Shown here: one piece after another, positions 42,584-58,124 of the stretch | Layout: every line of letters begins with the position of its first letter | Numbering within the stretch: position 1 is the first letter of the stretch | Assembly (NCBI GenBank): GCA_017453125.1 | Contig: JAFTKS010000002.1 | Location: 20,833 to 84,832 of the forward strand | Reading direction: 5' to 3' | DNA length: 64,000 nt | DNA from: Clostridia bacterium | GTDB taxonomy: Bacteria; Bacillota; Clostridia; Christensenellales; UBA1242 | Translations under genes and position numbers: made by a program | Notes under the pieces: model-generated | Database searches by the model: none | Told to the model about the DNA's origin: nothing | Seen by the model: only the letters and a program-made list of their open reading frames with translations

Positions 42584-43837
42584 ATGTATTTGATTGGAAT
42601 TGATGTTGGAGGAACAAACACAAAGTTTGGAATGATAGAAGATGGAAAGATTGTGAAGTCTTTTACTATTTCCACCAATACTTTTGATATAATCAGACAA
42701 TTGGTAAACGGAATAAAAGAATTGGTTCAATCGATGGGGAAAACTCTTGATGATGTCAGTGGTATTGCTGTTGGATTCCCTGGAATGATAATCAATGATA
42801 TTTTGAAGGATAGCCCAAATATTGGTTTGAGTGACTGCAATCTAGCAGAATTGCTTTCGAATGAACTTGGTAAATCTGTTATTGTTAAAAATGATGCTGA
42901 AATGGCTGTAATGGCGGAGCACAAATTGGGTGCTGGCAATAATTGTAATAATATGATTATGTTGACCATTGGCACAGGTGTCGGTGGAGGAATCATTATT
43001 AACAAACAATTATACACAGGTAATGGCGGAGCGGGCGAGTTGGGCCATATTGTTGTTAATAAAAACGGTCTCAAGTGTAAGTGTGGAAGAACTGGTTGTG
43101 CGGAGCAATATATATCTTTGTCGGCACTAGATAGAATAACAAGAGATTTGATTGTGGGATATCCTGATTCATCAATTAAAATTGAACCAGATAAAATGGT
43201 TGATGCTTGTGATCTTGTAAAGGCATATAAGAAGAACGATAGTTGTGCTATAGAAGTTGTACAAAGATATGTCGCAGAATTAAGTAGTTTTGTGTTAAAT
43301 CTATGTAATATGTTTCGCCCAGAGAAGATTGTTATTGGTGGCGGGCTTACTTATGCACCAGAAATTATTCAAATGGTTGCAAAGGTTTGTAAAGAACAAG
43401 AATTTGGTTATAAGGATAGTCCTAATGTTGAAATTGTTTCTTCGCAACTTGGAAATGAGGCTGGAATACTTGGAGCTATAGTTTGTTGTGAAGAAGTTGG
43501 AGTACAATCAAAGCCTAATATTTCTGAATTGACAGATGTATTGCAAGAGATTTCAGAAGTCAAACAAGAAGTTGAATCTGAAACAGATGAAGAAATGGTT
43601 GTTGAGACATCAGAAGATGATGCGGAAGAAATCCAATCAGAGGAAATCTCTCAATTTGACGAAACATTGGAAGATATCCAAGAAAAAAGAGATGTATCGG
43701 GAGTAAAACAAACATTTGATTTGTTTAAGGCTCTTACAGATGCCTCTGTGTCTAGTGAAAATGCTCAAGATTCAACTCCTGTAGAATATGATGAAGGGCT
43801 ACTTGATAGAGTCAATGAAATGCTAAAAAGAAAATAA
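42584..43837 (+). CDS. ROK-family glucokinase with acidic C-terminal extension
   Basis: IGIDVGGTNTKFG ATP motif and the ROK zinc motif CKCGRTGCAEQY. The last roughly 100 aa are Glu/Asp/Ser-rich. Confidence 0.85.
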   Translation: MYLIGIDVGGTNTKFGMIEDGKIVKSFTISTNTFDIIRQLVNGIKELVQSMGKTLDDVSGIAVGFPGMIINDILKDSPNIGLSDCNLAELLSNELGKSVIVKNDAEMAVMAEHKLGAGNNCNNMIMLTIGTGVGGGIIINKQLYTGNGGAGELGHIVVNKNGLKCKCGRTGCAEQYISLSALDRITRDLIVGYPDSSIKIEPDKMVDACDLVKAYKKNDSCAIEVVQRYVAELSSFVLNLCNMFRPEKIVIGGGLTYAPEIIQMVAKVCKEQEFGYKDSPNVEIVSSQLGNEAGILGAIVCCEEVGVQSKPNISELTDVLQEISEVKQEVESETDEEMVVETSEDDAEEIQSEEISQFDETLEDIQEKRDVSGVKQTFDLFKALTDASVSSENAQDSTPVEYDEGLLDRVNEMLKRK

Positions 43838-44237
43838 TGTTTAAATTAAAAAAGAGAATAGTTGAATAACTCCGTAAGGGGCAATTCAAGATTATCTCTT
43901 TTTTTTGTTGTCGGGGAGTACTAGTGTGTGCTTTTTTACTAAAAATTAAGAATAGAAGAAAAAATACTTTGAGTGTTGAAAATGTTTGCGAGATTTGAAG
44001 ATTGTGGTTTTGTGTATTTTACGAACATTTGAGGAGTCAAAGTATTTTTGTTGTAGATATTTGTCGTCTAAAAGCATCAATTGTGCTGAGTTGTGATGAA
44101 CTCCTGGTGTTTTTCTGTCAGAAAAGTGGAGTTGTATGCTCGGGGTGTTTCGTTATAGATATTTAAAGTCAAGTTAAAATCATTAAATATGCTAAAATTT
44201 TTGTAAAAAATATTTTTTAAAAATAGTTGAAATATCT

Positions 44238-44293
44238 TTGACTAACACAAGATATAGTGGTAAGATGTAATCGTATAACACAAGATATATGGT
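44238..44293 (+). promoter_or_regulatory. nrdD promoter with two NrdR boxes
   Basis: TTGACT (44238-44243) - 17 nt - TAAGAT (44261-44266). ACACAAGATATAGTGG (44245-44260) and ACACAAGATATATGGT (44278-44293) match the NrdR-box consensus acaCwAtATaTwGtgt at about 14 and 13 of 16 positions, 33 bp apart. Confidence 0.65.
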
Positions 44294-44346
44294 TTGCGAG
44301 GGTGTGTCGCCAACTATATATAGAATAAACTAATAAGGAGAAAGAA

Positions 44347-46710
44347 ATGATAACAAAAATAAGAAAAAGAGATGGAAGACTAGTTGACTATGATATTTCC
44401 AAGATTGAGAATGCGATTGCAAAGGCGATGATTTCTCTTGGAGATGGAGAGATTAAGGATTGTAAAAAGATGGCAAGAATTACAGAACTTAATCTTATGG
44501 AGAAGTTTGAGGATAGGATTCCGTCTGTTGAAGATGTACAGGACCAAGTTGAGAATGTTCTTATGACTAATGGATATGAGAATGTTGCGAAAGCATATAT
44601 TCTATATAGAAGAGATCACGAGAAAGTAAGAAATATTCAAAGTACAGTAATGGACTACAAACAGACTGTTGATAAGTATCTTAATCTTGCAGACTGGCGT
44701 GTAAAAGAAAACTCTACAGTTACATATTCTGTAGGTGGATTGATTCTTTCAAACTCTGGTGCAATTACAGCCAATTATTGGTTGAGCGAAGTGTATGACA
44801 AAGAAATAGAACAGGCTCATAAAAATGCTGATATACATATTCACGATTTGTCTATGCTTACTGGTTATTGTGCGGGCTGGTCGCTTAAACAATTAATTAC
44901 CGAAGGTCTTGGTGGAATTCCTGGAAAGATCACTTCTTCTCCTGCTAGCCACTTGTCTACTCTTTGTAATCAAATGGTAAACTTCCTTGGAATTATGCAG
45001 AACGAGTGGGCTGGTGCACAAGCATTCTCTTCGTTTGATACCTATCTTGCACCATTTGTAAAGAAGGATAATCTTTCTTACAAAGAGGTTAAACAGTGTC
45101 TTCAAAGTTTCATTTATGGTGTAAATACTCCATCTAGATGGGGAACTCAAGCACCATTTACCAATGTTACACTTGACTGGGTTGTTCCAAACGATTTGGC
45201 AGAACTTAATGCTATTGTTGGCGGAAAAGAACAAAACTTCAAATACAAAGATTGTAAAAAAGAAATGGATATGGTTAATAAAGCATTCATTGAACTTATG
45301 ATTGAGGGTGATGCTAATGGTAGAGGTTTCCAATATCCAATTCCAACTTATTCTATTACTAGAGATTTTGACTGGTCTGAAACTGAGAACAATAAATTAT
45401 TATTTGAAATGACAACTAAGTACGGAACACCATATTTCTCAAACTATATCAATTCAGATATGGAACCAAGTGATGTAAGAAGTATGTGTTGTAGACTAAG
45501 ACTTGACTTGAGAGAGTTGAGAAAGAAGTCTGGTGGATACTTTGGATCTGGTGAGAGTACTGGTAGTGTTGGTGTTGTTACAATCAATATGCCAAGAATT
45601 GCTTATCAATCAAAAAATGAAGAAGAGTTCTTTGATAGATTGGACAAGATGATGGATATCTCAGCTAGATCATTGAAGACAAAGAGAGAGGTTATAACCA
45701 AACTTCTTGAGGTTGGTCTTTATCCTTATACAAAGAGATATTTGGGTTCTTTCAACAACCACTTCTCAACAATTGGTCTTGTTGGTATGAATGAGGCTTG
45801 TTTGAATGCTAGTTGGCTAAGACAAGATTTGACTCATAAAGATGCTCAATTATTTACTCAAAAAGTACTTAATCATATGAGAGAAAGATTGAGTGATTAT
45901 CAAGAGAAATATGGTGATCTATATAATCTTGAGGCTACTCCTGCCGAAAGTACTTCATTTAGACTTGCAAAACACGACAGAGAAAGATTCCCAGATATTA
46001 TAACTGCATCAAAAGATGAAAGTATTCCTTATTACACAAATAGTTCACATCTTCCTGTTGATTATACTTCAGATATTTTTGAGGCACTTGATGTTCAAGA
46101 TGATCTTCAAACTCTTTATACTTCTGGTACAGTATTCCACGCATTCTTGGGAGAGAAGTTGGAAGACTGGAAGACAACTATGAATTTGGTAAAAACTATT
46201 GCTGAGAATTATAAACTTCCATACTATACAATTTCTCCAACTTATAGTATTTGTAAGAACCACGGCTATATTAGCGGTGAACATTACGAATGTCCTGTCT
46301 GTGGTGCAAAAACAGAAGTTTATAGTAGAATCACAGGATATTATAGACCAGTTCAAAACTGGAATGATGGTAAGACTGAGGAATTCAAAGAAAGAAAAAC
46401 TTATGATATTGCAAGTAGCAAATTGAAAAGGGCAAAAGAAGAGTGTGAGTGTTGTGGCAAAGAACCTCAACCACTTGCAATAGCAGAAAATACTTTGTTT
46501 ACAACCAAAACTTGCCCAAATTGTAAAATGGCAAAAATGCTTCTTGATAAAGCAAAAATAAAATATGTACTAATTGATGCTGAAGAAGATGCTGTTCTTG
46601 CAAGCAAGATGGGAGTCCAAAAAGCACCAACACTTCTAGTTCCAACAAAAGATGGTGTTAAAGTGTATGATAATGCGAGCGAAATCAAGAGATTTATCGA
46701 GGGCAAGTAA
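44347..46710 (+). CDS. nrdD: anaerobic ribonucleoside-triphosphate reductase fused to a C-terminal thioredoxin-fold (CPNC) domain
   Basis: N-terminal ATP-cone, thiyl loop SMCCRL (45481-45498), Zn-ribbon CPVCG, glycyl-radical motif RITGYY (G at 46336-46338), then an extra roughly 73-aa CPNC redoxin-like domain (46489-46707). Confidence 0.93.
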   Translation: MITKIRKRDGRLVDYDISKIENAIAKAMISLGDGEIKDCKKMARITELNLMEKFEDRIPSVEDVQDQVENVLMTNGYENVAKAYILYRRDHEKVRNIQSTVMDYKQTVDKYLNLADWRVKENSTVTYSVGGLILSNSGAITANYWLSEVYDKEIEQAHKNADIHIHDLSMLTGYCAGWSLKQLITEGLGGIPGKITSSPASHLSTLCNQMVNFLGIMQNEWAGAQAFSSFDTYLAPFVKKDNLSYKEVKQCLQSFIYGVNTPSRWGTQAPFTNVTLDWVVPNDLAELNAIVGGKEQNFKYKDCKKEMDMVNKAFIELMIEGDANGRGFQYPIPTYSITRDFDWSETENNKLLFEMTTKYGTPYFSNYINSDMEPSDVRSMCCRLRLDLRELRKKSGGYFGSGESTGSVGVVTINMPRIAYQSKNEEEFFDRLDKMMDISARSLKTKREVITKLLEVGLYPYTKRYLGSFNNHFSTIGLVGMNEACLNASWLRQDLTHKDAQLFTQKVLNHMRERLSDYQEKYGDLYNLEATPAESTSFRLAKHDRERFPDIITASKDESIPYYTNSSHLPVDYTSDIFEALDVQDDLQTLYTSGTVFHAFLGEKLEDWKTTMNLVKTIAENYKLPYYTISPTYSICKNHGYISGEHYECPVCGAKTEVYSRITGYYRPVQNWNDGKTEEFKERKTYDIASSKLKRAKEECECCGKEPQPLAIAENTLFTTKTCPNCKMAKMLLDKAKIKYVLIDAEEDAVLASKMGVQKAPTLLVPTKDGVKVYDNASEIKRFIEGK

Positions 46711-47621
46711 TGTACGATATAGTAGTAATTGGCGGTGGAGTGTCGGGAATGACTACGGCACTTTATGGCCTTAGAAATGGAAAGAAAGTTCTTCTAATTG
46801 AGGGAGAGAGTATCGGTGGGCAAATTGCACAATCTCCAAGGGTTGAAAATTTTCCTACATATAAAGAGATTAGTGGCTCGAAACTAAGTGAAGAGTTGTT
46901 TGATCAAATATCTGTTCTTGGTGTAGAGTTTGAATTTGATAAAATCGAACATATAGAAAAAGATGGCAAATATTTCACATTACAAGGTGAGTTTGGTGAG
47001 TATAGGGCAAAAACTGTAGTTGTTGCAAATGGTGTAAAGCATAGAAAACTAAATCTTCCTAATGAAGAGAAGTTGATAGGACACGGAGTATATTATTGTG
47101 CTCTTTGTGATGGACCATTTTATTCGGGAAAAGAAGTAACTTTGATAGGCGATGGAAATACTGCTCTTCAATATGCTCTGATGTTGAGTGGGATTTGCAG
47201 TAAAGTCAATCTTGTTATTATGTTTGATAAATTTTTTGGAGATGATAATCTTGTAAAAGCGGTAGAGGATAAGAAGAATATAAAAATAATTCGAAATTCT
47301 AGAACTATTGAGCTTGTAGGAGAAACATCTCTTGAAAGTATTAAGTTTGAGAAGTCTGACAAATCTACTTTTGAAATAGCGGGTACGCCTTTGTTTGTAG
47401 CGATTGGGCAGATTCCTGATAATAAGTGTTTCAAAAATCTTGCAGACCTTGACGAACAAGGATATTTCAAGTCTGATGAATCTACAAAGACAAGAACTGA
47501 AGGTTTCTATGTTGCTGGTGATACAAGAACGAAAGCTGTTAGGCAGGTTGCAACTGCTGTGTCTGATGGCGCTGTTGCTGCAACTCAGGCTTGTAATTAT
47601 ATTAATGCAAATTTTAAATAA
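46710..47621 (+). CDS. thioredoxin-reductase-like flavoprotein lacking the NADPH HRR motif
   Basis: GGGVSG FAD fold, redox-active CALCDG, second fold GDGNTA and C-terminal GD motif (YVAGD). The position of E. coli HRRDxFR reads IMFDKFFG. The ATG overlaps the nrdD stop (TAATG). Confidence 0.85.
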   Translation: MYDIVVIGGGVSGMTTALYGLRNGKKVLLIEGESIGGQIAQSPRVENFPTYKEISGSKLSEELFDQISVLGVEFEFDKIEHIEKDGKYFTLQGEFGEYRAKTVVVANGVKHRKLNLPNEEKLIGHGVYYCALCDGPFYSGKEVTLIGDGNTALQYALMLSGICSKVNLVIMFDKFFGDDNLVKAVEDKKNIKIIRNSRTIELVGETSLESIKFEKSDKSTFEIAGTPLFVAIGQIPDNKCFKNLADLDEQGYFKSDESTKTRTEGFYVAGDTRTKAVRQVATAVSDGAVAATQACNYINANFK

Positions 47622-47627
47622 AAAAAT

Positions 47628-47663
47628 ACCAAAGTGAATATGTGGGTTCACTTTGGTTTTTTC
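47628..47663. terminator. bidirectional terminator
   Basis: 11-bp stem ACCAAAGTGAA / TTCACTTTGGT flanked by an A-run and a T-run. Confidence 0.85.
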
Positions 47664-47667
47664 TTTT

Positions 47668-48831
47668 CTAGGTAAATGGTTTGTCGATTATAAAAACAAA
47701 TTCATAAGGCGTTTTTTCTTCGGCAAATTCCTGATGTAACTGATCGAGTATTTGTTTCTTTGTTAGCTGTGAAGAGAAGTCTTCTAGGATATCAAAAAGA
47801 ACTTTGATTTTATTTTTTTGTTCAATAATTCTTACGCCGTGTATTTGAATGTTTTTATTTAATTTTCTTAATGTTTTTAATATTCGTTCGTGTGTGGTTT
47901 TTGTTAGAGGGTCTTCTATATCTATTGGGTCAACTTGAATTGTTAAATTTATATGAAGTTTGTCCCAGAAATGTCTTTCAATTTTATCAACCAGTTCGTG
48001 ACAGTCAAGAAGTGTTGTTGTTTCAGGAACTTCGATATGAACTGATACAAATGTAGAGCCACTACCATAGGTGTGAATTAGAAGATCGTGCATATCGTTT
48101 ACACCATCAAAACCAAGTAGTTCACGTTTGATTTTGGATACAAGTTTCTTATTAGGTTTGACACTAATCAGTGGGTCTATTGTGTCGTTAATCATTCGAA
48201 TAGCAGAGACAACGGTTAGTAGCGAAACCGCAAGTCCTATATAACCATCAATATTTATAGAGCAAGATTGCATTACTATCATTGAAATAAGTATTGCAAT
48301 TGATGATAGCATATCATTTCTAGAGTCGACCGATGTCGCAAGAAGAGTGTCGCTATTTATGTCTTTTGCAAAGTTTCTATATAGTATTGCTAGGAATAGT
48401 TTTACAGCAATCATAACGCTAAGAATAACGTAAGTATAAATTCCAATCGATATTTCTTCTGGCTCTAGTATTTTTTCAAAACAAGATTTGGAAAATAATA
48501 CACCAAGTATTAACATTACAAGAGATATAAGCAGTCCGCAAATGTATTCAACTCTTGCGTGACCAAAAGGGTGTTCTTTGTCGGCTGGTTTGCTTGAAAG
48601 TTTGAATCCAACTAGTGTGATTATAGAACTTCCTGCATCGGTTAGGTTTCCAATTGATTGAACTATGATTGTTATGCTATTTGAAATAATTCCAATGACT
48701 ATTCCTGTTGCAAAAATCAAAAGATTAAAAAATATTCCAATCGCTCCTGCAACAACTCCATATCTATGATGTACATCGGGGTCGCTAGTTTTTCTATAGT
48801 TTTTTATAAATAATTTTTTAATTAGTTTCAT
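47668..48831 (-). CDS. cation diffusion facilitator family transporter
   Basis: Six TM segments. LTDAGSS, HPFGHARVE and the C-terminal cytoplasmic domain are typical of CDF proteins. Confidence 0.88.
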   Translation of the reverse strand: MKLIKKLFIKNYRKTSDPDVHHRYGVVAGAIGIFFNLLIFATGIVIGIISNSITIIVQSIGNLTDAGSSIITLVGFKLSSKPADKEHPFGHARVEYICGLLISLVMLILGVLFSKSCFEKILEPEEISIGIYTYVILSVMIAVKLFLAILYRNFAKDINSDTLLATSVDSRNDMLSSIAILISMIVMQSCSINIDGYIGLAVSLLTVVSAIRMINDTIDPLISVKPNKKLVSKIKRELLGFDGVNDMHDLLIHTYGSGSTFVSVHIEVPETTTLLDCHELVDKIERHFWDKLHINLTIQVDPIDIEDPLTKTTHERILKTLRKLNKNIQIHGVRIIEQKNKIKVLFDILEDFSSQLTKKQILDQLHQEFAEEKTPYEFVFIIDKPFT

Positions 48832-48906
48832 TTATTAGTAATAACCTCTTTGTTTTAATTGTTGTTACAATGTTTGTTGTGTGTGTCATTAATATCTTAG
48901 TTTTTG

Positions 48907-49602
48907 TCAATAACCCCTCAGATAAGTGTTATAAATATTTTTTCTAAGAATACTTGCAAATTGTTCTGCGGTATCTTTATCTATTGGGTCAAGTCCCGAT
49001 TGAAGGCAGTTCTCGTTGTCGACAAATTTCTGTAAAAATAACTTTTTTGCGCCCTTGATTAACTCGGCAATTTTTGTGATATCTTCTCGTGTGTGATACT
49101 GCTTTATAAGTGTTGTTCTAAACTCATAATCAATTCCGCAATTCATTATATATTCAATAGTGTCTTTTATGTTCCAGTGCGTATTTGTGTTAGTGGTTGT
49201 GTTGTATTTTTCAATGCTATTTTTGATGTCCATTGCAACATAATCTATTAACTGATTTTCAATTAAATTTTTGAGCATGGATAGATTTGTACCATTTGTG
49301 TCTAGTTTAATTTTGTAACCCATATCTTTGATTTCTTTTATAAATGCTGGAAGGTCAGGGTTTAGTGTTGGTTCACCACCTGAGATTACAACGCTATCAA
49401 GAACATTTTTTCTTTTTTCCAAATATTCCAAAACTTCGTTTTCTGGAATAATGTCATCAATACCTTTTACGAGTCTTGAGTTGTGACAATATGGACAAGC
49501 AAAGTTGCAACCTCTTGTAAAAATAGTTGCACTGATGTGTCCGTCAAAATCCACAAGTGATACTTTTTGCAGTCCAGATATTTTCATTTTAATCACCTTC
49601 AA
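48907..49602 (-). CDS. nrdG: anaerobic ribonucleotide reductase activating protein (radical SAM)
   Basis: CNFACPYCHN cluster motif and GGEPTL. 231 aa. Confidence 0.88.
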   Translation of the reverse strand: MKVIKMKISGLQKVSLVDFDGHISATIFTRGCNFACPYCHNSRLVKGIDDIIPENEVLEYLEKRKNVLDSVVISGGEPTLNPDLPAFIKEIKDMGYKIKLDTNGTNLSMLKNLIENQLIDYVAMDIKNSIEKYNTTTNTNTHWNIKDTIEYIMNCGIDYEFRTTLIKQYHTREDITKIAELIKGAKKLFLQKFVDNENCLQSGLDPIDKDTAEQFASILRKNIYNTYLRGY

Positions 49603-49836
49603 TTTTATTTTTTTCTAGTTTAACAATTTTATCAAAATTTGTCACTTATTTTAGGGGCAAGCTTGCTTGTTTGATTTTTTTTGTATGAATAGTTAAATTA
49701 AAAAAATTATGTTTTGACCCATTATTTTATTTAACAAAAAAAATATATTTTGCTATATTAATATATAAAGATAAATTTCTTTGACTAAAATTTATTCTTG
49801 AAAGATTAATCTTGTAAGATAAACAGGAGAGCAAAA

Positions 49837-52569
49837 GTGAAATATTACTATAATTATTCTCTTAAAGATGTTTATGAAAAATTGAACACATCAGATAAGG
49901 GATTGTCTACACAAGAGGCAAGTGCTAGGCTTCAAAGAAATGGAAAGAATGTGCTTGAGGAAGGCAAGTCCAAGACTTGGATACAAAGATTCTTTTCACA
50001 AATGAAAGATTTGATGATAATTGTATTGTTGGTTGCTGCTTTGATTTCTGCTGTAATTGCTGTTATCGAAGGGAAATATATAGACCTTATAGATGCTGGA
50101 ATTATCTTGTTAATAGTTATTCTCAATGCGGTTATTGGAACTATTCAAGAAAGTAAAGCCGACCAGGCAATGAAAGAACTGACCAAAATGAATCGACCAT
50201 TTGCCAAAGTTATAAGAGATGGCGAGATTTGTAAGATTAAATGTGAAGACATTGTTGTGGGAGATTTGGTTGTATTAGAGGCGGGAGATGTTGTTCCTGC
50301 TGATATTAGACTTATTTCCACAAAGTCGCTTAAAATTCAAGAGTCCACACTAACGGGTGAGAGTGTTCCTAGTGAGAAAGATTGTACTTTAGAGCTTGCA
50401 GATGAGACGCCACTTGGCGATAGAAAGACTATGGCTTATAGTACAGGTGTTGTGTCCTACGGTAGAGGTAGTGGAATAGTTGTTGCTACTGGTATGAATA
50501 CTGAAGTAGGAAAGATTGCTGGTATGTTAAATACTCAAGAGAAAAACGATACACCTCTTCAAGTACAACTTGCAAAGACTGCAAAATTTTTGTCATTTGT
50601 AGTCTTGGGCGTGGCTCTTATAATATTTATTGCGGGTATTATTAATAGAGGCGCTGGCGAGAGTTTGCTAGATAGTATTGTTAGTAGCTTTATGACGGCA
50701 GTTGCTATTGCGGTAGCGGCTATCCCAGAAGGTTTGCCTGCTGTTGTTACGATTGTTCTTGCTATTGGTGTTAAGAAGATGAGTGAAAGAAAGGCGATTG
50801 TGAAAAATTTGCCTGCAGTAGAAACGCTTGGCTGTTGTGAAGTTATTTGTTCAGATAAAACAGGAACATTGACTCTTAATAAGATGACGGTTAAACAATT
50901 CTATACAAAGTCTATGGGAATGTTTTATAGGGAAGATAATCCAGTTGATGAAAGTGTTAAAACTTTGATTGAGGGTATGGTTCTTTGTAATGATACCGAA
51001 GAGCGTTTGGACAATGAATTGATTGGAGATCCTACGGAAACTGCCCTTGTAGCATATGCTAGAAAAATCAAGTTGAATATCAAAGAAATCAAGGCTAATA
51101 ATGTTAGAATTGATGAGATTCCTTTTGATTCAAAAAGAAAGTTGATGACAACAGTACATAGTGATACTGTTCAAGAGACAAAGATTAGTTATACAAAAGG
51201 TGCTTTTGATATGCTCCTTCAGAAGTGTACAAAGATTCTTGATTTGAATAAAGAAAGAAATATTACGGAAGATGATATAGTTGCACTGAAGAAAGCAAAT
51301 AAAGAAATGGGCTCGAATGCTCTAAGAGTTTTGGGCTTGGCTTATAAAAAGCATCACCTAAAAGACCACGATAATCTAGAAAGTGACCTTGTGTTTGTTG
51401 GACTTGTTGGAATGATTGATCCTCCAAGAAAAGAAGTTGCTGGTGCGGTTGAAACTTGTGCTAAGGCTGGTATGACTGCAATAATGATTACTGGAGATCA
51501 TTTGGATACAGCTGTTGCAATTGCAACGCAAATTGGTATTTATAAGAAGGGCGATAGGGCTATTACAGGTGCAGAACTTGATAAACTTACTGATGAAGAA
51601 TTCTTGAGAGATTTGAAGAAGTACAAAGTTTATGCAAGGGTTAGCCCTGAAAATAAAGTAAGAATTGTTAATGCTTACAAATCTTTCAATATAATTGTAG
51701 CTATGACAGGAGATGGTGTTAATGATGCCCCATCAATCAAGACTGCAGATATTGGAATAGGTATGGGTATTACTGGCACTGATGTTAGTAAAGGTGCTGC
51801 CGATATAGTTCTTGCAGATGATAACTTTGCAACAATAATTGCTGCTGTTGAAGAGGGTAGAAAAGTTTACTCTAATATTAAGAAAGCTGTACAATATTTG
51901 CTTTCTGCTAATATTGCAGAAGTATTGTGTTTGTTTATCGCAACGATTTTCTTGAAAGTTGAATTTTTAAGCGCGGTAATGATTCTTTGGGTCAATCTTG
52001 TTACTGATAGTTTGCCTGCTCTTGCACTTGGTGTTGAGAAGGTTGAAAAAGATATAATGAATAGACCTCCAAGAAAGGCTGGTCAATCGTTATTTGCTGG
52101 ACATACTGGAAGAAATATAATTATTCAAGGATTGTGTCAAACTGCTCTTACAATGCTTTCTTATTGTTTGGGTGGATATGTTCTTGGTGGCGGAGTGTTT
52201 AGAGAAGATGTTGCTATGACAATGGCGTTCTTGACACTTTCTCTAATTCAATTGTTGCACGCATATAATAGCAGGTCTCAGAAACATTCTTTATTCTCAA
52301 GTAATCCGTTCAAAAACAAACAACTAAATTTGGCGTTTGTTGCAGGACTTATTCTTACTGCTATAACATTTATTCCTGCGTTCCAAACATTTATGGGAAC
52401 AACAATGCTATCGCTATCTGAATTCTTAATTGCAATTGGCTGTGCGTTTGCTATAATTATTTGTGTTGAAATCCAAAAGTTTATTGAATGGTGTATTGAA
52501 AAAAGAAAAAATAAAAATATTGCTAAGTTTGAAAAAGAACAAAAAGAAAAAACTGAAGGTTTGAATTAA
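49837..52569 (+). CDS. calcium-translocating P-type ATPase (P2 type)
   Basis: TGES, DKTGTLT, TGDH and GDGVNDAP motifs. 910 aa, GTG start after AGGAG. Confidence 0.93.
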   Translation: MKYYYNYSLKDVYEKLNTSDKGLSTQEASARLQRNGKNVLEEGKSKTWIQRFFSQMKDLMIIVLLVAALISAVIAVIEGKYIDLIDAGIILLIVILNAVIGTIQESKADQAMKELTKMNRPFAKVIRDGEICKIKCEDIVVGDLVVLEAGDVVPADIRLISTKSLKIQESTLTGESVPSEKDCTLELADETPLGDRKTMAYSTGVVSYGRGSGIVVATGMNTEVGKIAGMLNTQEKNDTPLQVQLAKTAKFLSFVVLGVALIIFIAGIINRGAGESLLDSIVSSFMTAVAIAVAAIPEGLPAVVTIVLAIGVKKMSERKAIVKNLPAVETLGCCEVICSDKTGTLTLNKMTVKQFYTKSMGMFYREDNPVDESVKTLIEGMVLCNDTEERLDNELIGDPTETALVAYARKIKLNIKEIKANNVRIDEIPFDSKRKLMTTVHSDTVQETKISYTKGAFDMLLQKCTKILDLNKERNITEDDIVALKKANKEMGSNALRVLGLAYKKHHLKDHDNLESDLVFVGLVGMIDPPRKEVAGAVETCAKAGMTAIMITGDHLDTAVAIATQIGIYKKGDRAITGAELDKLTDEEFLRDLKKYKVYARVSPENKVRIVNAYKSFNIIVAMTGDGVNDAPSIKTADIGIGMGITGTDVSKGAADIVLADDNFATIIAAVEEGRKVYSNIKKAVQYLLSANIAEVLCLFIATIFLKVEFLSAVMILWVNLVTDSLPALALGVEKVEKDIMNRPPRKAGQSLFAGHTGRNIIIQGLCQTALTMLSYCLGGYVLGGGVFREDVAMTMAFLTLSLIQLLHAYNSRSQKHSLFSSNPFKNKQLNLAFVAGLILTAITFIPAFQTFMGTTMLSLSEFLIAIGCAFAIIICVEIQKFIEWCIEKRKNKNIAKFEKEQKEKTEGLN

Positions 52570-52587: not shown

Positions 52588-53256
52588 ATGGGCTATATTG
52601 TCGTAATTACAGGAACAGATGGTTGTGGAAAACAAACACAAACCAAATGTCTTATGGATAGGCTTGCTATAGAGGGTATTGACGCAATGGCAGGTACTTT
52701 CCCAAAATACGACAGCCCATCTAGTGCTCCTGTTAAAATGTATCTAGGTGGAGAATTTGGTGATGCAAATTCGCTTGATGCGTATCAAGCAAGCACGCTT
52801 TATGCTGTGGATAGATTGTGTACGTATAATAAAGATATGAAAGAGTACTATGAGAATGGTGGTATTATCGTTCTAGATAGATATGTGGAGTCGAATATGC
52901 TTCATCAGGCGGGTAAAATCCGAGATAGGGCTGAGGTTGATAAGTATCTAGAATGGTTGGAAGATTTTGAATATGGAAAACTTAAACTTCCTAAACCAGA
53001 TAAAGTCATATTCTTAGATGTTCCTATTGAGGTTTCTTTGAAACTCAAAGAGAATCGGGCATATAAGGCGGAAACGAAAAAAGATGTTCAAGAAGATGAT
53101 GTGGAACATCTGATAAATGCTTATAATAGCGGAAAATATGTTAGTGAAAAATATGGTTGGACGACCATTTCTTGTGTTGAAGATGGACAACTTCTCTCAA
53201 TTGAAACAATTGCAGAAAAAGTGTGGAATTCAGTTAAAGAAGATTTAAAGAATTAA
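52588..53256 (+). CDS. tmk: thymidylate kinase-like nucleotide kinase
   Basis: P-loop GTDGCGKQTQ and a DRY motif (VLDRYVESN). 222 aa. Confidence 0.8.
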   Translation: MGYIVVITGTDGCGKQTQTKCLMDRLAIEGIDAMAGTFPKYDSPSSAPVKMYLGGEFGDANSLDAYQASTLYAVDRLCTYNKDMKEYYENGGIIVLDRYVESNMLHQAGKIRDRAEVDKYLEWLEDFEYGKLKLPKPDKVIFLDVPIEVSLKLKENRAYKAETKKDVQEDDVEHLINAYNSGKYVSEKYGWTTISCVEDGQLLSIETIAEKVWNSVKEDLKN

Positions 53257-57132: not shown

Positions 57133-57468
57133 ATGAACAAATTTTTAATGAGTTTACAGACTATGGCAGGAAAGTTGTTTGAAGACAAAATTATTTCTGG
57201 CGACAAAGATTCTCTTTCTGATATCGCAGAATTCTTCAAATTATTAATGAACAAGATTCTTGCTCCAGTACTTATTGTTATTGGTGCTGCTGCAGCTATC
57301 TATGCTGTATACCTTGGTGTTATGTATGCTAAGGCTGAAGACGCTAACAAGAGAAAAGAAGTTCAAGGAAGATTAATTGGTGCCGCTATTGGTGTTGTAA
57401 TTATCATCGTTGGTATTACTCTATGTTATGCTGTTAAGTGGGATTCAATTGTATATAGTCTAATGTAA
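57133..57468 (+). CDS. VirB2/TrbC-like pilin-type small membrane protein
   Basis: 111 aa: a long leader, then two hydrophobic helices separated by a charged loop (AKAEDANKRKEVQGR). Own terminator. Confidence 0.55.
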   Translation: MNKFLMSLQTMAGKLFEDKIISGDKDSLSDIAEFFKLLMNKILAPVLIVIGAAAAIYAVYLGVMYAKAEDANKRKEVQGRLIGAAIGVVIIIVGITLCYAVKWDSIVYSLM

Positions 57469-57785: not shown

Positions 57786-58124
57786 ATGGGATTGTCGCAA
57801 TTGTTAGGAAGAAGTGAAGCGGGAGCAATGGTAAATCAAATATTGAATACTTGGATTGGCCCGCTATTTACGGTTATTGGTGGTGTTGGGGCTATATATA
57901 TTGTTATTCTTGCTATTCAGTATATAAAGAGCGAGAGCGATAGCAAAAGAGCTGAAGCAAAATCAAGAATTGTCAATTGTGTAATTGGTGTATTGTCGCT
58001 AATTATTATTGGTGTTGTTTCTATGGCTGTTGACTGGGCAAAACTTGTAGAAATATTTGGCTATACTGCTAAAGGTTATTCTGATCCCGATGTTGCAACT
58101 AGACTATTGCCATTTCTAAGATAA
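57786..58124 (+). CDS. VirB2/TrbC-like pilin-type small membrane protein (paralog)
   Basis: 112 aa with the same helix/charged-loop/helix layout (IKSESDSKRAEAKSR loop). Shares the IG-x-x-AIY-x-V-x-L-x-x-x-Y-x-K-x-E pattern with the previous gene. Confidence 0.5.
   Translation: MGLSQLLGRSEAGAMVNQILNTWIGPLFTVIGGVGAIYIVILAIQYIKSESDSKRAEAKSRIVNCVIGVLSLIIIGVVSMAVDWAKLVEIFGYTAKGYSDPDVATRLLPFLR

Follow-up and report, generated by a model that had tools for sequence, protein, structure and literature searches.

The 64,000-nucleotide stretch of DNA considered here (the window) belongs to a Clostridia bacterium of the Christensenellales (UBA1242; GenBank assembly GCA_017453125.1, contig JAFTKS010000002.1, positions 20,833 to 84,832 of the forward strand). 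It contains a gene for an anaerobic, class III ribonucleotide reductase (RNR), nrdD, which continues into a small glutaredoxin (Grx)-like domain and is directly followed by a gene for a flavoprotein of the thioredoxin reductase (TrxR) family. An earlier note on this DNA, made from the letters alone, had read the pair as a hard-wired and probably NADPH-independent disulfide relay feeding the anaerobic synthesis of deoxyribonucleoside triphosphates (dNTPs). The relevant genes, domains and residues, some of them taken from AlphaFold2 (AF2) models, are as follows.

44347-46710, + strand: nrdD-grx fusion gene, an uninterrupted open reading frame (ORF) of 787 amino acids (aa)
44356-44622, + strand: ATP-cone, the allosteric on/off domain, residues 4-92 (PF03477, E 6e-22)
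44707-46404, + strand: class III RNR catalytic core with glycyl-radical domain, residues 121-686 (PF13597, NF006126, TIGR02487)
44869-44871, + strand: C175, the beta-A ('bottom-face') cysteine, aligned with Escherichia coli C175 and Thermotoga maritima C125
45484-45495, + strand: finger-loop motif M380-C381-C382-R383 (SMCCRL), from alignment with E. coli and T. maritima NrdD
45931-45933, + strand: E529, putative active-site proton donor, aligned with T. maritima E495
46252-46302, + strand: Zn-ribbon ligands C636, H639, C649 and C652, read from the sequence and invariant in the alignment, the role in Zn binding being assigned by analogy
46327-46344, + strand: glycyl-radical motif RITGYY with G664, read from the sequence
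46405-46482, + strand: predicted flexible linker, residues 687-712, with a variable Cys cluster C700/C702/C703 at 46444-46455 (AF2)
46483-46707, + strand: C-terminal thioredoxin-fold (Grx/NrdH-like) domain, residues 713-787 (PF00462, AF2)
46513-46524, + strand: redoxin active site TCPNC, C723-P-N-C726, read from the sequence
46627-46629, + strand: putative cis-Pro P761 (APTL), read from the sequence, P761 being invariant in the alignment
46710-47621, + strand: TrxR-family flavoprotein gene, 303 aa (ORF; profile, PDB and fold matches)
48907-49602, - strand: nrdG, the radical-SAM activase of NrdD (TIGR02495, 208 bits, cutoff 131)

NrdD is fused to a redoxin and linked to a reductase gene

In profile searches the NrdD core reached 646 bits against PF13597 (cutoff 26, E 5.5e-194), 1137 bits against NCBIfam NF006126 (cutoff 548) and 532 bits against TIGR02487 (cutoff 326). 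Together with an RxxGY motif behind the Zn ribbon, retained as RITGYY in 119 of 120 homologs, and with a nearby nrdG, these scores identify a class III NrdD. The earlier note had let the protein run on past these elements into a redoxin, and this reading was confirmed: Glutaredoxin PF00462 matches residues 716-764 with 35.8 bits (cutoff 22.9), and residues 711-787 were modelled by AF2 with a predicted local distance difference test score (pLDDT) of 86-93 and in the order beta-alpha-beta-alpha-beta-beta-alpha, that of the thioredoxin fold. By profile, CxxC motif, cis-Pro loop and modelled topology the extension can be assigned to the glutaredoxin/thioredoxin-fold proteins. It represents a divergent small redoxin of its own type, as its scores stay below the equivalog cutoffs of YruB (TIGR02196, 25.2 bits, cutoff 88.6), the best match among the NCBIfam redoxin families, and of Grx3 (TIGR02181, 23.4 bits, cutoff 90). 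The closest solved redoxins, namely the glutaredoxin 2klx (E 1e-4), a Bacillus subtilis-type thioredoxin and NrdH, match weakly. Of the 70 parsable related fusions, 67 have CPNC as their active-site motif.

The redoxin is connected to the core by a region (residues 657-709) with a pLDDT below 50, as expected of a flexible tether, and the linker varies among homologs in both length and sequence. Its cysteines, an acidic cluster of the CxC/CxxC type, were considered as a conserved shuttle comparable to the C-terminal pair of class I/II enzymes. This idea looked promising in close homologs and was then dropped: among the 70 related species with a parsable linker 23 have two or more linker cysteines and 35 have none, and the cluster is absent from several distant fusions. 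The linker cysteines are thus probably not essential.

The combination of ATP-cone, NRDD and glutaredoxin domains was present in all of the 120 closest database homologs (80-100 % identical, from many independent assemblies). Of 150 cluster representatives (clustering at 50 % identity) about 82 have an intact C-terminus; about 18 of these carry a thioredoxin-fold tail with CPNC, CPKC, CPRC or CQNC, and the others end about 30 residues past the glycyl-radical motif. A scan of GTDB with one genome per species matched at least 599 relatives, of which the best 80 (69-81 % identical) were used further. Since all 80 align up to residues 783-787 of the query they can all be taken as fusions, so that the earlier view of a true NrdD-redoxin gene held in both surveys. 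These species belong to the Christensenellaceae, Oscillospiraceae, Acutalibacteraceae, Lachnospiraceae, Erysipelotrichaceae and to other Bacilli known from metagenome-assembled genomes. Isolate genomes with the fusion include those of Pseudobutyrivibrio sp. YE44, Anaerocolumna aminovalerica DSM 1283 and Ruminococcus turbiniformis, and the full operon exists in at least one cultured organism, R. turbiniformis, there with a reductase of the HRR type described below. The arrangement is common in gut Firmicutes.

Other rearrangements were seen among the cluster representatives. In P0345 and P0363 a C-terminal radical-SAM activase (NrdG-like, CxxxCxxC) takes the place of the redoxin, which makes them NrdD-NrdG fusions. 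Many NrdDs among the representatives P0242-P0390 are 900-1900 aa long and align to the query in two to four separate stretches, a pattern suggestive of one to three inserts, either inteins or others, several of which adjoin the finger loop (e.g. HNCCRL after the insert).

The stop codon TAA of nrdD-grx (46708-46710) shares its last A with the start codon of the flavoprotein gene (ATG, 46710-46712), so that the two genes overlap in TAATG (46708-46712) just as the earlier note had it. Among the 80 loci of fused species, 67 have a TrxR-family gene as the next gene downstream, mostly with a gap of less than 20 nt and often overlapping. As a control, 80 metagenomic loci of a non-fused sister group were inspected, whose NrdDs are 66-74 % identical to representative P0255, have tails of about 30 residues and carry the same SMCCRL and NLEATP[AG]E motifs as the fused group; nrdG is found immediately upstream in 72 of these loci, and at least 1.2 kb of downstream sequence is available in 66. 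A TrxR-like or Grx-like gene within 4 kb was found in none of them (67/80 vs 0/80 for linked TrxR, Fisher p = 5.6e-32). The reductase gene thus accompanies the fused redoxin rather than NrdD in general, which is the signature expected of a reductase that recycles the fused domain.

The limits of the operon and its probable regulation are indicated by the following elements.

44238-44266, + strand: promoter-like site upstream of nrdD, TTGACT-17-TAAGAT with TG extension (consensus match only)
44245-44260, + strand: NrdR-box-like site 1, ACACAAGATATAGTGG, overlapping the promoter-like site
44278-44293, + strand: NrdR-box-like site 2, ACACAAGATATATGGT, 33 bp downstream of site 1
47628-47657, bidirectional: hairpin resembling an intrinsic terminator, flanked by T/A runs, at the end of the two-gene operon

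Both boxes resemble the NrdR operator consensus, and the core ACAC[AT]ANATAT shows an about 32-fold enrichment upstream of nrdD(-nrdG) over the remaining sequence of the same 80 related loci. The two-gene operon is thus probably regulated by NrdR. An nrdR gene was not found in the window by motif search, and an Rfam scan of 43500-50000 gave only a sub-threshold chance match.

Active site of NrdD and donor site of the flavoprotein

In the finger loop C382 aligns with the thiyl-radical cysteine and C381 is an additional one, so that the query reads MCCR compared with MGCR in E. coli and SCCR in T. maritima. Around E529 the query has NLEATPAE and T. maritima, around E495, NIEQVPAE, whereas E. coli has a Tyr at this position. 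Both motifs are nearly invariant in the related fused loci (SMCCRL in 79/80, NLEATPAE in 80/80). Class III enzymes split at a single node into lineages with one finger-loop cysteine (MGCR) and with two (MCCR/SCCR) (Burnim et al., PMC9669993). As summarised there from Wei 2014, the double-Cys loop together with the Glu correlates with thioredoxin dependence, and the double-Cys enzyme of Neisseria bacilliformis is described as using thioredoxin (PMC9669993). The NrdD of T. maritima is inactive with formate and requires a protein reductant of more than 10 kDa (PMC4493059). The E. coli and Prevotella copri enzymes, both of the formate type, have no equivalents of Cys381 and Glu529 (PMC11226230).

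The earlier note had taken SMCCRL as the mark of a thiol-dependent enzyme. This was upheld in so far as the double Cys, the beta-A Cys and the Glu are all present and match the association in the literature. However, the motif is not diagnostic: the query has Met380, unlike the SCCR loops of N. bacilliformis and T. maritima, 83 % of the double-Cys enzymes retain this Met of formate chemistry, which in principle leaves both reductants open to them (Burnim et al., PMC9669993), and the non-fused sister group shares the motifs. Because MCCR enzymes keep the Met, the motif alone does not decide the reductant.

The flavoprotein belongs to the Pyr_redox_2 family and is most like thioredoxin reductase in profile searches. 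Its motifs are located as follows.

46725-46748, + strand: FAD-binding GxGxxG, VIGGGVSG, residues 6-13, aligned to E. coli TrxB
47097-47114, + strand: redox-active CALCDG with C130/C133, residues 130-135, aligned to CATCDG of E. coli TrxB
47148-47165, + strand: second dinucleotide loop GDGNTA, residues 147-152, which replaces GGGNTA/GGGNSA
47217-47240, + strand: IMFDKFFG, residues 170-177, in the position of HRRxxxR, aligned to TrxBs

The FAD-binding GxGxxG, the CxxC and two Rossmann folds of a TrxB are present; HRRxxxR is missing, and the score against the TrxB equivalog TIGR01292 (285.7 bits) is under the cutoff of 343.45. The AF2 model (pLDDT 79) matched structures of NADPH-dependent thioredoxin reductases (NTRs) best in Foldseek, with TM-scores of 0.67-0.80. 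Alignment with TrxB bore out the combination described in the earlier note, i.e. CALCDG and both dinucleotide folds with IMFDKFFG instead of HRRxxxR. IMFDKFFG falls exactly on the columns that hold HRRDGFRA in E. coli TrxB and HRRDHLKA in the Methanosarcina mazei TrxR. Intact NADPH-binding arginines, which would have spoken against that description, were not seen: relative to E. coli TrxB all three 2'-phosphate-binding Arg are replaced, in the clade of the query by M/L, F and F. The 120 closest flavoprotein homologs (73-97 % identical), whose invariant columns were also read from a sample of 41 sequences, all have IMFDKFFG and GDGNTA unchanged.

All 67 full or near-full linked TrxRs have CxxCDG, and they fall into three classes according to the donor site. 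Class (c), with about 14 species including R. turbiniformis, has the canonical HRRxxFR and GGGNSA; class (b), with about 24 species, has QN(L)xx(L/F)TG and GGGNSA; and class (a), with about 25 species and the query, has (T/A/I)(L/M)FD(K/R)(F/L)F(G/A) and GD(A/G)N(T/S)A. In clade (a) the Asp at the second position of the loop is invariant, and the central Gly is changed to Ala in 19 of 26 members. The reductase of locus L037 has an aberrant MRRNTYSPSA, and those of L015 (TRKDRFSG) and L006 (VSGNKFSG) look intermediate. A tree of the linked TrxRs, made by neighbour joining as the single method and with E. coli TrxB as the single outgroup and root, shows the HRR class as basal and paraphyletic and (b) and (a) as derived clades. 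The motif of clade (b) is that of the Thermosipho africanus TrxR 7jyp (VQNLPYLTA), which is the top PDB match of this clade (3e-70) and reaches 177 bits with the flavoprotein of the query.

The fixed differences between (a) and (c) are, in E. coli numbering without the initiator Met, G153D, R176 to L/M, R177 to F, R181 to F and E183D; almost all lie in the NADPH site, two others in the FAD domain. Because the differences cluster in this way, the donor site has probably been remodelled by targeted change and not by drift, and in the clade of the query the pyridine-nucleotide site appears to be specifically rebuilt. With three arginines turned hydrophobic and an Asp in the GxGxxA loop, NADPH bound at the canonical site is an unlikely donor.

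The proposed relay and its alternatives

The operon can be read as a self-contained, probably NrdR-regulated reducing system for anaerobic dNTP synthesis, and we consider this reading likely. A donor would reduce the FAD of the flavoprotein, from which electrons would pass to its C130/C133 disulfide. C130/C133 would then reduce the C723/C726 disulfide of the redoxin domain on its flexible tether, and C723/C726 in turn the C175-C381 disulfide that is left in the NrdD active site after each turnover. In NrdD itself C382 would form the thiyl radical, E529 would serve as proton donor and G664 would store the radical installed by NrdG. The fused domain would resemble NrdH or Cp9, with a Grx-like sequence and recycling by a TrxR-type enzyme instead of glutathione. 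A dedicated relay from flavoprotein via fused redoxin to the NrdD cysteines is well supported by comparative genomics. Domain architecture, motifs, their conservation and a linkage confined to fused NrdD are direct observations, whereas we infer the single electron-transfer steps, the donor and independence of formate.

The relay of the earlier note thus stands with its fusion, its linkage and its redoxin-type active site, while the NADPH independence is plausible for the clade of the query only. Several observations weigh against the reading. In about 14 species this place in the operon is taken by a TrxR with the canonical HRRxxxR, which makes NADPH independence a property of the clade and not of the system. 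No TrxR was found within 4 kb in 13 of the 80 fused loci (some with short flanks), mostly of Lachnospiraceae including Pseudobutyrivibrio and Anaerocolumna, so that a dedicated reductase must be dispensable or encoded elsewhere. Met380, in E. coli part of the formate-dependent chemistry, is retained, and formate use is thus possible (PMC9669993). The GxGxxA of the query is formally intact, and AhpF is likewise hydrophobic at two of the Arg positions. Finally, the full-length AF2 model of NrdD-Grx (mean pLDDT 59.7), in which the catalytic core is poorly modelled because the alignment is shallow, is too poor to judge the docking of the redoxin on the active site.

The alternative that survives best leaves the relay unchanged and takes the flavoprotein for a Cp34-like TrxR driven by NADH, in which losing the arginines would only have exchanged NADPH for NADH. 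The GxGxxA loop and AhpF make NADH plausible: the query keeps the Rossmann fold as well, and in the NADH-specific AhpF two of the Arg positions are occupied by F-A (LLEFAPEMKA). The TrxR of T. maritima is reported to prefer NADH, and a relative of it, the T. africanus enzyme 7jyp, has the QNLxxLT motif of clade (b). Furthermore, YruB, the best though sub-cutoff match of the fused domain, belongs to the Cp9/YruB redoxins that are encoded beside an NADH-dependent TrxR in Clostridium pasteurianum and C. novyi (PMC3720550). However, the end of beta-2 lacks the acidic or amide residue, with Ile in the query and Thr or Ala in the clade compared with Glu in AhpF, and the invariant Asp in the phosphate loop and the Gly to Ala change in 19 of 26 members oppose any canonical dinucleotide binding. 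On this balance of motifs, NADH dependence is possible but somewhat unlikely, and for the clade of the query a protein donor, ferredoxin or flavodoxin, is rated slightly above NADH. A motif search of the rest of the window and a Pfam search of ten small ORFs revealed no ferredoxin, flavodoxin or thioredoxin and no second TrxR.

A different role for redoxin and flavoprotein would follow if NrdD were formate-dependent like the E. coli enzyme. The two could then be accessory, for example in re-reducing active-site or Zn-ribbon cysteines after oxidative damage or in redox-gating the activity, and would not be the stoichiometric source of electrons. The retained Met380 fits this view, since MCCR enzymes are potentially formate-capable (Burnim et al., PMC9669993), as do the non-fused sister group, which has an identical active site and no linked redoxin, and the missing adjacent reductase in 13/80 fused loci. 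Yet Cys381 and Glu529, which the formate-using E. coli and P. copri enzymes lack (PMC11226230), are invariant, the T. maritima NrdD, which shares this Cys/Glu set, is inactive with formate (PMC4493059), and fusion plus operonic reductase is the pattern of stoichiometric RNR reductants such as NrdH and Grx::NrdB (PMC6187632). We therefore regard formate dependence as improbable.

Even less probable is the membership of the flavoprotein in the ferredoxin/flavodoxin-dependent flavin thioredoxin reductases (FFTRs), of which the earlier note had considered the motif loss characteristic. FFTRs are TrxR homologues unable to use NADPH, with ferredoxin as their electron donor (PMC12796991, PMC8154056) and a very low FAD potential of about -448 mV (PMC12796991). 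Clostridial members are identified by missing GxGxxA and HRRxxxR motifs and by clustering with known FFTRs (PMC10880999). The absence of HRRxxxR is the criterion for non-NTR TrxBs in Clostridia (PMC10880999), and ferredoxin should be abundant in the host, an anaerobic Firmicute. GxGxxA is formally present in the query as GDGNTA, with an unusual Asp, and degenerate as GDANxA in most members of the clade. NADPH-type TrxRs are closer both in sequence (150-193 bits, 4zn0 with 193, compared with 113-122 bits for 6gna/6gnd/6gnc, 6gna with 122, and 106 bits for the Gloeobacter enzyme 5j60) and in fold, as the Foldseek top 50 for the AF2 model hold no FFTR. The aligned stretch of the FFTRs is 19 residues shorter (276 vs 295 in the query; chain 288 vs 303 aa), and no conserved C-terminal aromatic tail is seen. 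It also nests among the nrdD-linked TrxRs with HRR-type basal members, in a neighbour-joining tree built without FFTR or Cp34 sequences, so that the placement relative to FFTRs rests on similarity ranks. FFTR membership was rejected on these sequence scores, the fold ranking and the tree. The loss of the arginines thus appears to have occurred independently of the FFTR lineage, in two derived clades, for which reason the donor cannot be deduced by homology and ferredoxin or flavodoxin is only one possibility.

Clade (a) might tentatively be seen as an unrecognised, independently evolved class of pyridine-nucleotide-independent TrxR, distinct from FFTR/DFTR and with the NrdD-fused redoxin as its single client. 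If so, dNTP synthesis would draw directly on the low-potential ferredoxin/flavodoxin pool in many uncultured gut Firmicutes. A sequencing frameshift or assembly artefact joining two genes can be dismissed, because the same unbroken ORF occurs in hundreds of independent assemblies including isolates, and nothing was found in its favour.

Outside the operon, nrdG lies on the opposite strand as the earlier note had placed it, with a single cation-efflux gene between it and the flavoprotein gene; nrdG adjoins nrdD-grx in most related loci. An 81 %-identical relative has the same overlapping nrdD-grx/TrxR pair and the convergent nrdG with another gene between them, so that the cation-efflux gene is not part of the system. 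A second gene of dNTP metabolism, of the thymidylate-kinase/deoxynucleoside-kinase family, is found at 52588-53256, about 3 kb downstream of nrdG. Upstream of nrdD an ORF at 42584-43837 resembles, by inspection of its translation, a ROK-family sugar kinase and ends in a strongly acidic low-complexity tail of about 100 residues. Further downstream two small ORFs (57133-57468 and 57786-58124) resemble type IV secretion system pilins (PF18895), one scoring slightly under the Pfam cutoff and the other over it, which suggests a conjugative element.

Comparison with known systems

The system is a widespread variety of redoxin-dependent class III RNR that is undescribed in the literature searched: there, with Wei et al. 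2014/2015 and Buey et al. 2018 outside the scope, no account of a C-terminal NrdD-redoxin fusion or of a linked reductase was found. The sole mention of a Grx-NrdD is the entry 'Glutaredoxin:NrdD' for Lachnospiraceae bacterium TWA4 (WP_082039398.1) in a supplementary table (PMC6187632), where the fusion is uncharacterised and no linked reductase is described. The reductant of class III RNR is settled for only a handful of enzymes, and for the large MCCR group the choice between formate and thioredoxin is explicitly left open (PMC9669993). The fusion is a natural 'Rosetta stone' in this respect, as it joins an MCCR enzyme to a redoxin in at least 80 species of Clostridia and Bacilli; most of these also join it to a TrxR in the operon, which is strong genomic evidence for a dithiol route. 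As a compact two- or three-protein system it is suited to testing this route, and the HRR, QNL and TLF donor sites at one operon position are a natural experiment on donor change in the TrxR family.

The class III RNR of N. bacilliformis, a thioredoxin/TrxR/NADPH system in the summaries of Wei et al. 2014 given in PMC9669993 and PMC4493059, has in common with the query the double-Cys loop, the beta-A Cys, the active-site Glu and, by the path proposed for the query, a dithiol supplied by a TrxR-recycled thioredoxin-fold protein. As summarised there, it differs in its free, general thioredoxin, in a normal NADPH TrxR encoded elsewhere and in an SCCR loop without Met. The query has a covalently attached redoxin, a reductase from the same operon whose NADPH site is rebuilt, and an MCCR loop.

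For Methanosarcina barkeri, Wei and co-workers reportedly described in 2015 a class III RNR with an NrdH-like redoxin and a [4Fe-4S] ferredoxin:disulfide reductase. This system is likewise said to feed the enzyme through a dedicated redoxin and a dedicated non-NADPH reductase, but the latter would be an FTR-type iron-sulfur protein unrelated to flavoprotein TrxRs and the redoxin a separate protein.

A Grx-like domain that is part of an RNR polypeptide and serves as its own reductant is known from class I: in Facklamia ignava the fused Grx of Grx::ATP-cone::NrdB reduces the enzyme (PMC6187632). There, however, the fusion is N-terminal, on the radical-generating subunit, and depends on glutathione (PMC6187632). 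The Cp34/Cp9 pair of C. pasteurianum, compared by description only, resembles the proposed relay of the query in that a small Grx-like redoxin, there of the YruB family, receives electrons from an operonic TrxR-like flavoprotein that does not use NADPH, and in the clostridial anaerobic host (PMC3720550; Reynolds, Meyer & Poole 2002 for Cp34/Cp9). In that pair, however, the acceptor is a peroxiredoxin, the redoxin is free and the donor is NADH (PMC3720550).

Two groups of flavoproteins are comparable to the reductase alone. The FFTRs (C. acetobutylicum 6gna/6gnc; Gloeobacter 5j60/6xtf) also have a low-Mr TrxR scaffold without the NADPH-binding Arg (PMC12796991, PMC8154056), but they form another lineage, are described as missing both NADPH motifs and serve general thioredoxins. 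The TrxR of T. africanus (7jyp), with the QNLxxLT of clade (b), is, among solved structures, the one closest to the linked reductases that lack the motif, although it stands outside clade (a), to which the query belongs.

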